Origin: Escherichia coli
GTDB taxonomy: Bacteria > Pseudomonadota > Gammaproteobacteria > Enterobacterales > Enterobacteriaceae
Strand: one strand, 5' to 3'
Assembly (NCBI RefSeq): GCF_016026235.1
Contig: NZ_CP065613.1
Length of the DNA stretch: 64,000 bases
How positions within the stretch are numbered: the stretch's first letter is position 1; each line of letters starts with the position of its first letter. Position numbers and translations under genes: made by a program. Shown here piece after piece: positions 3,513 through 43,005 of this stretch. The notes beneath the pieces are model-generated. The model was not told where the DNA came from. It searched no databases and saw nothing but the letters and a program-made list of their open reading frames with translations.

Positions 3513-4475
3513 ATGCGTCAGACTAAAACCGGTATCCTGCTGGCAAACCTGGGTACGCCCGATGCCCCCACACCTGAAGCGGTAAAACGCTATCTGAAAC
3601 AATTTTTAAGCGACAGACGCGTGGTTGATACCCCACGGTTGTTATGGTGGCCGTTGCTGCGCGGCGTGATTTTGCCGCTGCGCTCGCCGCGTGTGGCGAA
3701 GCTGTACGCCTCGGTCTGGATGGAAGACGGCTCGCCGCTGATGGTTTACAGCCGCCAGCAACAGCAGGCGTTGGCACAACGTTTACCGGATACGCCCGTA
3801 GCGCTGGGCATGAGCTACGGCTCGCCATCACTGGAAAGCGCCGTCGATGAACTCCTGGCAGAGCATGTAGATCATATTGTGGTGCTGCCGCTTTATCCGC
3901 AATTCTCCTGTTCTACGGTCGGTGCGGTATGGGATGAACTGGCACGCATTCTGGCGCGCAAACGTAGCATTCCGGGGATATCGTTTATTCGTGATTACGC
4001 CGATAACCACGATTACATTAATGCACTGGCGAACAGCGTACGCGCTTCTTTTGCCAAACATGGCGAACCGGATCTGCTGCTGCTCTCTTATCATGGCATT
4101 CCCCAGCGTTATGCAGATGAAGGCGATGATTACCCGCAACGTTGCCGCACAACGACTCGTGAACTGGCTTCCGCATTGGGGATGGCACCGGAAAAAGTGA
4201 TGATGACCTTTCAGTCGCGCTTTGGTCGGGAACCCTGGCTGATGCCTTATACCGACGAAACGCTGAAAATGCTCGGAGAAAAAGGCGTAGGTCATATTCA
4301 GGTGATGTGCCCGGGCTTTGCTGCGGATTGTCTGGAGACGCTGGAAGAGATTGCCGAGCAAAACCGTGAGGTCTTCCTCGGTGCCGGCGGGAAAAAATAT
4401 GAATATATTCCGGCGCTTAATGCCACGCCGGAACATATCGAAATGATGGCTAATCTTGTTGCCGCGTATCGCTAA
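3513..4475 (+). CDS. hemH: Ferrochelatase
   Basis: 320-aa ORF recognised as E. coli HemH. Confidence 0.95.
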
Positions 4476-6901: not shown

Positions 6902-6985
6902 GTAGGCCAGCTAAGGCGTTCACGCCGCATCTGGCATTTTGCTCTCAATGCCTGATGCGACGCTGGCGCGTCTTATCAGGCCTAC
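6902..6985. repeat. REP/BIME palindromic units (two, opposite orientation)
   Basis: gcctgatgcgacgctggcgcgtcttatcaggcctac and a degenerate inverse copy between convergent gsk and ybaL. Confidence 0.85.
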
Positions 6986-12659: not shown

Positions 12660-12743
12660 ACACCGTCGCTTAAAGTGACGGCATAATAATAAAAAAATGA
12701 AATTCCTCTTTGACGGGCCAATAGCGATATTGGCCATTTTTTT
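12660..12743 (+). ncRNA. chiX: ChiX (MicM/SroB) Hfq-dependent small RNA
   Basis: Sequence acaccgtcgcttaaagtgacggcataataat...gggccaatagcgatattggccattttttt matches my recollection of ChiX; TTGGCA-17bp-GACAAT promoter at 12625-12653; terminal hairpin plus T-run overlapping the ybaP stop. Confidence 0.8.
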
Positions 12744-14037: not shown

Positions 14038-14275
<238 letters not shown>

Positions 14276-28300: not shown

Positions 28301-28603
<303 letters not shown>

Positions 28604-29012: not shown

Positions 29013-29135
29013 TTGAATATGTAGGCATCCTGACTTATAATTCACTTGCTAGATGAGGACTGTTTCATTTCTGCCCGGAACCACCAAGTCTTGGGCGGAA
29101 AAAATAAAAAAACCGACTGTCATGTCGGTTTTTTT
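29013..29135 (+). ncRNA. Candidate small RNA: TTGAAT-17bp-TATAAT promoter (29013-29041), predicted start near 29048, terminator hairpin plus T7 at 29111-29135
   Basis: Near-consensus sigma-70 promoter and intrinsic terminator bracket about 88 nt with no ORF; the 5' end carries a 16-nt core (tgctagatgaggactg, 29047-29062) identical to 28861-28876 in the presumed leader of the toxin-like ORF. Confidence 0.35.
29109..29135. terminator. Bidirectional A-tract/hairpin/T-tract terminator (also terminates selU); direct-repeat copy B
   Basis: aaaaaaaccgac-tgtcat-gtcggttttttt; 63 nt downstream of the selU stop on the minus strand. Confidence 0.65.
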
Positions 29136-29198
29136 ATATCTGTATTCTGGTGCAACCATTCTGTTCTCACGACAATCGCCGTTTCAGAATACCGCCCA

Positions 29199-34776: not shown

Positions 34777-35553
34777 ATGTTACGTTTCTCTGCTAATTTA
34801 TCGATGTTATTTGGAGAATATGATTTTCTCGCCCGTTTTGAGAAAGCTGCGCAGTGTGGTTTTCGCGGCGTTGAATTTATGTTTCCTTATGACTACGACA
34901 TTGAAGAATTAAAACAGGTGCTGGCGAGTAATAAACTCGAACATACGCTGCACAATTTACCGGCGGGTGACTGGGCGGCGGGGGAGCGCGGTATTGCCTG
35001 TATTCCTGGCCGTGAAGAAGAGTTTCGGGATGGCGTAGCAGCAGCGATTCGTTATGCCCGTGCGCTGGGTAATAAAAAAATTAACTGTCTGGTCGGTAAA
35101 ACGCCGGCTGGTTTCAGCAGTGAACAGATTCACGCAACGCTTGTAGAAAACCTGCGTTATGCCGCGAATATGCTGATGAAAGAAGATATTTTATTACTGA
35201 TTGAACCTATTAACCATTTTGATATTCCTGGTTTCCATCTCACCGGAACTCGGCAGGCGCTGAAATTGATTGATGATGTTGGTTGCTGCAATTTGAAAAT
35301 TCAGTATGACATTTATCACATGCAGCGGATGGAAGGTGAATTAACCAACACCATGACTCAGTGGGCTGATAAAATTGGTCACCTGCAAATTGCCGATAAT
35401 CCGCATCGCGGCGAACCGGGAACCGGAGAAATTAATTATGATTATCTCTTTAAGGTAATCGAAAATTCTGACTACAACGGTTGGGTTGGGTGTGAATATA
35501 AACCCCAAACCACCACGGAAGCCGGTTTACGCTGGATGGATCCGTACCGTTAA
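34777..35553 (+). CDS. hyi: Hydroxypyruvate isomerase
   Basis: 258-aa ORF (xylose-isomerase-like TIM barrel). Confidence 0.93.
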   Translation: MLRFSANLSMLFGEYDFLARFEKAAQCGFRGVEFMFPYDYDIEELKQVLASNKLEHTLHNLPAGDWAAGERGIACIPGREEEFRDGVAAAIRYARALGNKKINCLVGKTPAGFSSEQIHATLVENLRYAANMLMKEDILLLIEPINHFDIPGFHLTGTRQALKLIDDVGCCNLKIQYDIYHMQRMEGELTNTMTQWADKIGHLQIADNPHRGEPGTGEINYDYLFKVIENSDYNGWVGCEYKPQTTTEAGLRWMDPYR

Positions 35554-38213: not shown

Positions 38214-39575
38214 ATGTCTTTTGATTTAATCATTAAAAACGGCACCGTTATTTTAGAAAACGAAGCTCGCGTTGTAGATATCGCCGTTAAAGGCGGAAAA
38301 ATTGCTGCTATCGGTCAGGATCTGGGCGATGCAAAAGAAGTTATGGATGCGTCTGGTCTGGTGGTTTCGCCGGGCATGGTTGATGCGCACACCCATATTT
38401 CTGAACCGGGTCGTAGCCACTGGGAAGGTTATGAAACCGGTACTCGCGCAGCGGCAAAAGGTGGTATCACCACCATGATCGAAATGCCGCTCAACCAGCT
38501 GCCTGCAACGGTTGACCGCGCTTCAATTGAACTGAAGTTCGATGCCGCTAAAGGCAAGCTGACTATCGATGCGGCACAACTCGGTGGCCTGGTGTCTTAC
38601 AACATCGACCGTCTGCATGAGCTGGATGAAGTGGGCGTTGTCGGCTTCAAATGCTTCGTTGCGACCTGTGGCGATCGCGGTATCGACAACGACTTCCGTG
38701 ATGTAAACGACTGGCAGTTCTTCAAAGGTGCGCAGAAGCTGGGCGAACTGGGGCAGCCGGTGTTGGTGCACTGCGAAAACGCGCTGATCTGTGACGCACT
38801 GGGCGAAGAAGCGAAACGTGAAGGTCGCGTAACTGCCCATGACTATGTGGCTTCGCGTCCGGTATTTACCGAAGTGGAAGCGATTCGCCGCGTGCTGTAT
38901 CTGGCGAAAGTTGCCGGTTGCCGTCTGCACGTTTGCCATATCAGCAGCCCGGAAGGTGTTGAAGAAGTGACTCGTGCACGTCAGGAAGGTCAGGATGTTA
39001 CCTGTGAATCCTGCCCGCATTACTTTGTACTGGATACCGATCAGTTCGAAGAAATCGGCACTCTGGCGAAGTGTTCACCGCCGATCCGCGATCTGGAAAA
39101 CCAGAAAGGCATGTGGGAAAAACTGTTTAACGGTGAAATCGACTGCCTGGTTTCCGACCACTCACCATGCCCTCCGGAAATGAAAGCCGGCAACATCATG
39201 GAAGCATGGGGCGGTATTGCCGGTCTGCAAAACTGTATGGACGTGATGTTCGATGAAGCGGTACAGAAACGCGGAATGTCTCTGCCAATGTTCGGCAAAT
39301 TAATGGCGACTAACGCAGCAGATATTTTCGGTCTGCAGCAAAAAGGCCGTATCGCCCCAGGAAAAGATGCCGACTTCGTCTTCATTCAGCCGAATAGCAG
39401 CTATGTTCTTACCAATGACGATCTGGAATATCGCCACAAAGTCAGCCCGTATGTTGGCCGTACCATTGGCGCGCGTATCACGAAAACCATCTTACGTGGT
39501 GATGTGATTTACGACATCGAACAGGGCTTCCCTGTTGCGCCGAAAGGTCAATTTATCCTTAAACATCAGCAGTAA
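38214..39575 (+). CDS. allB: Allantoinase
   Basis: 453-aa ORF (cyclic amidohydrolase with metal-binding His residues). Confidence 0.95.
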
Positions 39576-42100: not shown

Positions 42101-42117
42101 CCCTTACCTTTAAAGCG

Positions 42118-42144
42118 GATGCGATTTATTTCGCATCTTTTTTT
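42118..42144 (+). terminator. Rho-independent terminator of glxK
   Basis: Stem gatgcga / tcgcatc with loop tttatt, followed by 7 T. Confidence 0.75.
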
Positions 42145-42147
42145 ACC

Positions 42148-42156
42148 TGAATTTAC
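42148..42156. repeat. Target-site duplication TGAATTTAC (left) of the IS1 insertion
   Basis: Identical 9-mer at 42925-42933 directly flanking the other IS1 end. Confidence 0.9.
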
Positions 42157-42211
42157 GGTAATGCTGCCAACTTACTGATTTAGTGTATGATGGTGATTTT
42201 AAGGTGCTTGC

Positions 42212-42487
42212 GTGGCTTCCATTTCCATCAGATGTCCTTCCTGCTCCGCTACTGAAGGCGTGGTGCGTAACGGCAAAAGCACTGCCGGACATCAGCGCTA
42301 TCTCTGCTCTCATTGCCGTAAAACATGGCAACTACAGTTCACTTACACCGCCTCTCAGCCCGGTACGCACCAGAAAATCATTGATATGGCCATGAATGGC
42401 GTCGGATGTCGCGCCAGTGCACGCATTATGGGCGTTGGCCTCAACACGGTTTTACGTCACTTAAAAAACTCAGGCCGCAGTCGGTAA
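42212..42487 (+). CDS. insA: IS1 InsA (transposition inhibitor / N-terminal part of transposase)
   Basis: 91-aa ORF, GTG start, zinc-finger CxxC...CxxC and HTH; recognised as InsA with several substitutions relative to the K-12 copies as I recall them. Confidence 0.9.
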
Positions 42488-42909
42488 CCTCGCGCATACA
42501 GCCGGGCAGTGACGTCATCGTCTGCGCTGAAATGGACGAACAGTGGGGCTACGTCGGTGCTAAATCACGTCAGCGCTGGCTGTTTTACGCGTATGACAGG
42601 ATACGGAGGACGGTTGTGGCGCACGTCTTCGGTGAACGCACTCTGGCCACACTGGAGCGTCTTCTGAGCCTGCTGTCGGCCTTTGAGGTCGTGGTATAGA
42701 TGACGGATGGCTGGCCGCTGTATGAATCACGCCTGAAGGGAAAGCTGCACGTTATCAGCAAGCGTTACACTCAGCGCATTGAGCGACATAATCTGAATCT
42801 GAGACAACATCTGGCAAGGCTGGGACGGAAGTTACTGTCGTTCTCAAAATCGGTGGAGTTGCATGACAAGGTCATCGGGCATTATCTGAACATAAAACAC
42901 TATCAGTAA
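42406..42909 (+). pseudogene. insB: IS1 insB frame interrupted by an in-frame amber codon (TAG at 42697-42699)
   Basis: The -1 frame relative to insA is open from 42406 but stops at TAG 42697-42699 (...AFEVVV* then MTDGW...); canonical IS1 has TGG (Trp) there as I recall. Confidence 0.7.
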
Positions 42910-42924
42910 GTTGGAGTCATTACC

Positions 42925-42933
42925 TGAATTTAC
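42925..42933. repeat. Target-site duplication TGAATTTAC (right) of the IS1 insertion
   Basis: Identical to 42148-42156. Confidence 0.9.
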
Positions 42934-42936
42934 TAC

Positions 42937-42963
42937 AAAAAAAGCCACGGTATAAACCGTGGC
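42937..42963 (-). terminator. Rho-independent terminator of allE
   Basis: On the minus strand: stem gccacgg / ccgtggc with loop, followed by 7 T (A-run at 42937-42943 on plus). Confidence 0.7.
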
Positions 42964-43005
42964 AAAATCCAACATAGCTAAAAATAATCAGGCGAGTGGT
43001 ATGAC

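Follow-up and report, generated by a model that had tools for sequence, protein, structure and literature searches.

Between two convergent genes of Escherichia coli, an IS1 copy carries an in-frame amber codon in the frame that encodes the catalytic part of its transposase. This arrangement, seen in a 64,000-nt stretch of DNA (hereafter the window), raises the question of whether the stop is peculiar to this copy, and of how a copy interrupted in this way came to occupy its present site. The feature is a long-catalogued IS1F pseudogene allele, already known. We regard the copy itself as very probably an IS1F with a fixed TGG-to-TAG nonsense mutation, non-autonomous and inserted by transposase supplied in trans.

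A complete IS1 element in the glxK-allE spacer

Positions 42157-42924 of the window hold a complete 768-bp IS1, whose ends and internal features were checked by sequence comparison and which aligns from end to end, without gaps, with both the IS1A and the IS1F copies of K-12. It displays the characters of the IS1 family, namely a length of about 768 bp, imperfect inverted repeats of about 23 bp beginning with GGTRATG (20 of the first 23 positions match), a target-site duplication of 8-9 bp (here the 9-mer found on both sides), matches to the Pfam families PF03811, PF12759 and PF03400, and the A6C motif. No second IS1 was found within the 64-kb window. The locus is composed of the following features.

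42117..42146, plus strand: terminator-like hairpin with a T-run, downstream of glxK (hairpin inspection)
42148..42156: left target-site duplication, 9 bp, TGAATTTAC (identical 9-mers directly flank the element)
42157..42924, plus strand: complete 768-bp IS1, IS1F subtype (6 nt from K-12 IS1F, 67 nt from K-12 IS1A)
42157..42179, plus strand: IRL, left terminal inverted repeat, GGTAATGCTGCCAACTTACTGAT (20/23 positions agree with the reverse-complemented right end)
42212..42487, plus strand: insA, GTG start, 91 aa, open; Zn ribbon and HTH (ORF list, Pfam)
42463..42469, plus strand: A6C (AAAAAAC) programmed -1 frameshift motif, intact (sequence)
42466..42696, plus strand: part of the insB' frame lying between the frameshift site and the amber codon; fused to insA codons 1-85, it yields an InsAB' cut short at 162 aa (conceptual fusion)
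42501..42519, plus strand: four synonymous IS1A-like bases, a probable short gene-conversion tract (alignment, variable-site table)
42697..42699, plus strand: amber codon TAG, in frame, replacing Trp163 (InsAB' numbering; sequence, ORFs, alignment)
42700..42909, plus strand: last 69 codons of insB' (MTDGW...HYQ, then TAA), second half of the DDE domain (ORF list, Pfam)
42902..42924, minus strand: IRR, right terminal inverted repeat, ...AAGTTGGAGTCATTACC (inverted-repeat comparison)
42925..42933: right target-site duplication, 9 bp, TGAATTTAC (perfect match to the left 9-mer)
42944..42963, minus strand: terminator-like hairpin, downstream of allE (hairpin inspection)

The element lies between the convergent glxK (end 42100) and allE (end 43006, minus strand). 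It disrupts no coding sequence, since it sits between the two convergent terminator-like hairpins, just after that of glxK, in agreement with the ORFs and with the synteny with K-12 and FDAARGOS_943. When the empty site was rebuilt with a single TGAATTTAC, the resulting 240 nt were recovered at 100% identity from many E. coli strains (O26, O111, O103 and others), and at 99% identity or more from 1534 records. The glxK-allE copy is thus a simple IS1 insertion. It would have entered the spacer by normal IS1 transposition, making the 9-bp duplication in the process.

K-12 was unusable as an empty-site reference, its glxK-allE spacer containing an extra REP-like segment of about 120 bp. This segment (L010:2570-2700) is found at almost the same point as the IS1 (window 42139-42160). 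The gap between the glxK and allE terminators seems to tolerate insertions repeatedly.

Comparison with Rfam revealed a full-length match to the enterobacterial sRNA STnc480 at 42933-42999 on the plus strand (87.1 bits, for a gathering score of 72). The first base of the match is also the final one of the right target duplication, which places the IS1 immediately against the modelled 5′ end of this RNA, where it replaces the sequence formerly located upstream; the match also overlaps the allE terminator hairpin on the opposite strand. Matches to naRNA4, the REP325-type nucleoid-associated RNA repeat, were obtained at 6905-6982, 14041-14219 and 28370-28548, two of them being tandem pairs, and these copies account for the internal repeats in the BLAST comparison. 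The other RNAs of the window are sroB (12660-12743), AgrB from the dinQ region (29049-29137) and ES036 (28324-28366).

The amber codon and its predicted effect on the transposase

The insB'-frame ORF runs from the ATG at 42406 to position 42699 and ends ...LLSAFEVVV at the TAG of 42697-42699, which corresponds to IS positions 541-543. The ATG at 42700 then opens a 69-codon ORF, closing at TAA 42907-42909. An earlier reading of this DNA, made from the sequence alone, had located the stop and the following ATG correctly, and the AAAAAAC that it reported as an intact A6C motif is indeed present at 42463-42469. The TGG that it gave as the canonical codon was borne out by the ungapped alignment with K-12 IS1A (NC_000913.3 19796-20563), in which ...VVIWMTDGW stands against ...VVV(stop)MTDGW in the window copy. 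The codon at this site is TGG (Trp) in IS1A and also in intact IS1F-type copies, and the apparent restart ATG is the conserved Met164 codon, the same ATG being present in IS1A.

The sequence-only reading had further presented the stop as a peculiarity of one copy relative to "the K-12 sequence". This framing did not hold, as K-12 IS1F (insB7, b4576) has the same TAG. Only 6 of 768 nt separate the window element from K-12 IS1F, with which it shares the stop, as against 67 nt (8.7%) from K-12 IS1A, and position 4 of the IRL is A as in IS1F, instead of the G of IS1A. A copy located between yqfG and uacT in E. coli FDAARGOS_943 is 100% identical to the window element and bears the PGAP label [quoted passage not shown]; near-identical copies are likewise labelled "internal stop" by RefSeq/PGAP. 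Judged by its sequence, the element belongs to the IS1F lineage, already catalogued in E. coli, as a full-length copy, and the stop in insB' is the hallmark of that lineage. As for the supposedly diverged insA, five of the 91 residues do differ from the InsA of IS1A (V4I, S7R, D15E, T69S and I79V), but they simply make up an IS1F-type InsA and are in no way peculiar.

Conceptual fusion by a -1 frameshift gives the 232-codon architecture of InsAB', with the stop at codon 163. Analysis with Pfam placed Zn_ribbon_InsA at residues 1-36 and HTH_Tnp_IS1 at residues 43-86 of the insA product. The 162-aa product keeps both of these DNA-binding domains and only positions 1-61 of the 131 positions of the DDE_Tnp_IS1 profile, and the 69-aa remainder matches positions 63-131, the split falling at 61/62. 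The proposed truncation of InsAB' was thereby supported, with the stop halving the DDE_Tnp_IS1 domain. The continuous InsAB' frame of an autonomous IS is missing from the window copy, being interrupted inside this domain after codon 162. We take the second catalytic Asp to be that of the "TDGW" motif, three codons past the stop, and the catalytic Glu to be that of "RIERHN", a placement based on the D-D-E motif that Ohta et al. 2002 reportedly described for the IS1 transposase and on the split of the Pfam domain.

The truncated InsAB' is predicted to lose this Asp and this Glu, and hence catalysis. Normal InsA, comprising the Zn ribbon and the HTH, would still be made and would act as a repressor binding the inverted repeats. 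Rare -1 frameshifting at the A6C motif would yield the 162-aa InsAB' fragment, in which the DNA-binding domains are followed by the initial half of the DDE domain. As neither the Asp of "TDGW" nor the Glu region further downstream is present, this fragment would be unable to catalyse transposition. Both the ends and the cis sites inside the element are preserved, and the copy should therefore behave as a non-autonomous element.

Distribution and mobility of the amber allele

A 32-nt probe, built so that every 28-nt seed word includes the TAG, was searched in 5426 complete E. coli genomes. The TAG allele was present in 2956 of them (54%), at 3816 places, with a median of one copy per genome and a maximum of 5; 35 of these places are on plasmids. 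The TGG version of the probe was found in 3312 genomes and at least 17972 places, a figure that is an undercount, with a median of 3 copies, a maximum of 46 and 2419 places on plasmids. Plasmids account for about 1% of the TAG places versus about 13% of the TGG places. This contrast in copy number and plasmid share is the pattern expected if the TAG abolishes autonomous mobility, and it gives a population-scale view of the cost of the stop.

Among 100,044 species represented by one genome each, the 32-nt context was matched 60 times, in species of Mixta, Siccibacter, Yersinia, Pantoea, Klebsiella and Kluyvera among others. As TGG was present in 59 of the 60 matches, the TAG is the derived allele. 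The lone TAG among these representatives lies on a 547-bp contig (NZ_JPMI01000182.1, L046) of Archangium violaceum Cb vi76 and most likely represents E. coli contamination of the assembly.

The TAG allele was also found in 41 of 72,556 PLSDB entries and on 34 metagenome contigs. Some of the metagenome TAG copies show indels, truncation or end duplication, and their indels and truncations are consistent with decay, as for pseudogenes. The exact InsA protein of the window copy was found on 856 public contigs. Identical TAG-bearing IS1 copies, without target duplications, occur on plasmids pEk140_mcr-10 (Enterobacter roggenkampii, L075) and pEGY2 (E. coli, L076). Their haplotype (276A, 636C, 677C, 703C) is a different one, which indicates that the amber allele has moved by recombination to other IS1F-like backbones and is spread by conjugative plasmids.

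The fec-side junction was detected in 2552 genomes, at 2589 places. Even if a TAG copy stood at each of these, some 1200 or more of the 3816 TAG places would lie elsewhere. The fec-linked TAG copy is ancestral-looking. The fec copies of K-12 and strain 504838 differ only by H34P, in the Zn ribbon, and T52K, both nonsynonymous; with so few sequences, domestication of InsA was considered unsupported. The InsA of strain 503025 carries an R-to-H change in the HTH. The InsA changes in K-12 and 503025 look like relaxed constraint, in a sample too small for a test.

The defective form was found at new sites, the TAG copies at glxK-allE, yqfG and ybhM each having their own 9-bp duplication (GGAATAGAG for the yqfG-uacT copy of FDAARGOS_943 and GTCGCCATA for the ybhM copy of WCHEC035148). 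A mosaic TAG copy at metagenome locus L097, also with its own target duplication, is a fourth such case. Defective TAG copies thus do reach new sites, but rarely.

In K-12 BW25113, every sequenced IS1 insertion derived from IS1A or IS1E, and IS1 transposition was undetectable in a K-12 strain in which only IS1B, C, D and F were left (PMC12428005). IS1F was the source of 44% of 48 sequenced Bgl+ insertions under overexpression of InsAB' in trans; the effect in trans was low at native InsAB' levels, mobilisation requiring overexpression (PMC12903888). In both papers, the immobility of IS1F is put down to unspecified substitutions and the stop codon is nowhere mentioned (PMC12428005, PMC12903888). 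No explicit description of the insB amber codon (insB7/b4576) was found in the literature searched. The natural insertions of TAG copies agree with the 2025 experiments in which K-12 IS1F was mobilised by transposase supplied in trans (PMC12903888). The proposal of the sequence-only reading that the copy is non-autonomous yet mobilisable in trans is accordingly supported by the TAG/TGG copy-number contrast, by the clean 9-bp duplications and by these published experiments on K-12 IS1F. We infer that the transposase for the glxK-allE insertion was supplied in trans, most likely by an intact IS1 of the IS1A type or the IS1F type present in the same cell.

The closest complete genome, that of E. 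coli FDAARGOS_943, is collinear with the window at 99.9-100% and has the same glxK-allE insertion. It differs from the window by an IS1A in allB, another IS1A between hyi and gcl, and an IS5 in fdrA (window points 34783-34790, 39227-39235 and about 46561; loci L014/L015). The two additional IS1A insertions indicate that IS1A has been active recently in this lineage. Its allE has an internal stop, versus an intact 261-codon ORF in the window, and in the FDAARGOS_943 lineage the region for allantoin utilisation is undergoing erosion by IS elements. An intact IS1F-type TGG copy (WP_226342153.1), flanked by the duplication CCATCAATT, is located near gltA in the same genome. A search for helpers thus returned intact IS1A and IS1F-type copies in FDAARGOS_943 and none among the 64 kb of the window. 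We infer the helpers of the window copy from this closest complete genome, its own source being represented by 64 kb only.

An alternative is that an intact TGG copy of the IS1F type inserted autonomously at glxK-allE and received the TAG later, by conversion from a resident copy such as the fec-linked one, in which case the amber copy never moved. The presence of the TAG on more than one haplotype, together with the IS1A-like patch of the window copy, indicates that gene conversion operates among IS1 copies, and the TAG could consequently have arrived after insertion. In this patch, IS positions 345, 357, 360 and 363 are G, C, C and C, as in IS1A, instead of the usual A, T, G and T of IS1F, a pattern suggestive of gene conversion over a short tract (19 to 78 bp). 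The patch is absent from the copy of FDAARGOS_943 at the same glxK-allE site, which has the usual IS1F bases, and present in the yqfG copy of that genome; among the 5426 genomes, only FDAARGOS_943 gave a 100% match to the window variant. Three or more haplotype backgrounds carry the TAG (677T/703T; 677C/703C/636C/276A on plasmids; the IS1A/X2-like mosaic of L097), and intact IS1F-type copies exist, such as the malM copy of strain 203740, one base from K-12 IS1F, and the gltA copy of FDAARGOS_943.

However, later conversion requires an extra event for each of the duplication-flanked TAG copies (glxK-allE, yqfG, ybhM and L097). In addition, both examined IS1F-TAG copies of the FDAARGOS_943 lineage have 677T/703T, as does the TAG clade, whereas the gltA copy, which is intact, has 677C/703C, and a conversion tract would therefore have to span at least 162 bp, from position 542 to position 703. 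As a simpler route is available in the mobilisation in trans demonstrated for K-12 IS1F (PMC12903888), we consider later conversion unlikely and retain the insertion of the amber copy itself by transposase supplied in trans.

Useful decoding of the UAG, by a suppressor tRNA or by context-dependent readthrough, would provide full-length InsAB' and make the element weakly autonomous. Such decoding would fit with the new, duplication-flanked insertions of TAG copies and with the 69 codons that are still open past the TAG in the window copy. Against it stand the K-12 strain with only IS1B, C, D and F, which showed no detectable IS1 transposition (PMC12428005), the copy numbers of the TAG allele (a median of 1 and a maximum of 5, versus 3 and 46 for TGG) and the indels in some TAG copies. 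Amber suppression of the supE type, which the sequence-only reading had left as a way out, found no support: the 64-kb window has no tRNA gene and, at the supE locus, to which this second observation is confined, the tRNA-Gln(CUG) of FDAARGOS_943 has the wild-type CTG anticodon and is the sole CUG-type tRNA in its cluster. Productive reading of the codon thus has only a slim chance of being correct. Finally, the TAG differs from TGG by a single base, but a sequencing or assembly error, the refutation that the sequence-only reading had foreseen, or a recent private mutation of one copy is excluded, because K-12 IS1F carries the same TAG and the identical allele with its 32-nt context is found in 2956 independent complete genomes, K-12 MG1655 among them, on 41 plasmids and on 34 metagenome contigs, the exact 97-aa and 69-aa ORF products each being encoded on at least 1000 public contigs.

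With regard to annotation, the element should be labelled as an IS1F with an insB pseudogene, not as an unusual or suppressor-dependent transposase; otherwise the feature matters little. Together with the yqfG and ybhM copies, the insertion between glxK and allE provides a natural case of a nonsense-mutant IS1 that reached new sites with clean duplications. It is conceivable, although we hold it to be very unlikely, that the amber IS1F owes its persistence in some half of E. coli genomes to a braking effect on IS1, acting as a host-favoured "immunity" allele and not simply as a dead copy. Were this true, InsA and the 162-aa fragment would bind the inverted repeats without catalysis and could inhibit active IS1 in trans.

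Comparison with known IS1 elements

K-12 IS1F (NC_000913.3 4518472-4519239; insA7 b4294, insB7 b4576 pseudogene) is identical to the window copy at 762 of 768 nt. Common to both are the TAG at 541-543, the inverted repeats with A at position 4, the A6C motif and a Ser-to-Leu change at IS position 677. K-12 IS1F is located at fecI-yjhU, without target duplication, whereas the window copy occupies the glxK-allE spacer and is flanked by a perfect 9-bp duplication. The InsA of K-12 IS1F has H34P and T52K, both absent from the window InsA, which is nearer to the consensus, and the window copy differs by its IS1A-like 4-nt patch (IS positions 345-363). K-12 IS1F is immobile alone and mobilised by InsAB' in trans (PMC12428005, PMC12903888), a behaviour with which we equate that of the window copy. 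The TAG copy at ybhM in WCHEC035148 (L077:2482-3249) is one base from K-12 IS1F, a C to A change at IS position 313 that converts A6C into A7.

The "consensus" elements IS1A and IS1E, which are the active copies of K-12, have the same 768 bp, the same order IRL-insA-A6C-insB'-IRR, 9-bp duplications and the same Pfam domains. The IS1F subtype has diverged from them by about 9%. IS1A differs from the window copy by 67 nt, by TGG in place of TAG, by five InsA residues and by a functional 232-aa InsAB'.

Intact elements of the IS1F family (WP_225379934.1 in 203740, WP_223718721.1 in 2017C-4109 and WP_226342153.1 in FDAARGOS_943) share the backbone and ends of the window copy but have TGG, the InsAB' ORF being complete; presumably autonomous, they constitute candidate helpers. 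E2863 also has an intact copy of this family, and the intact malM copy of 203740 and gltA copy of FDAARGOS_943 each have 9-bp duplications. The former (L011:1262-2029) is set apart from K-12 IS1F by one base only, TGG for TAG; it is a revertant of the amber allele, or else the form from which that allele directly arose. The chromosome of 203740 also carries a TAG copy, and IS1 occupies at least 40 places on it. A copy in O157:H7 has kept the TGG but acquired another stop, GAA to TAA, at IS position 382.

The IS1X2-type mosaic is IS1F-like over its 3′ two-thirds, from about IS position 293, and its insB' protein is that of the window copy except at the stop and at the S/L of position 677. Its 5′ third is, in contrast, IS1A-like, it has TGG, and 36 nt separate it from the window copy. 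Lastly, MITE-like elements mobilised in trans likewise combine intact ends with the lack of a functional transposase of their own and depend on a related autonomous copy. Unlike such deletion derivatives, the window copy is full-length, is interrupted by one nonsense codon and still encodes the InsA repressor.
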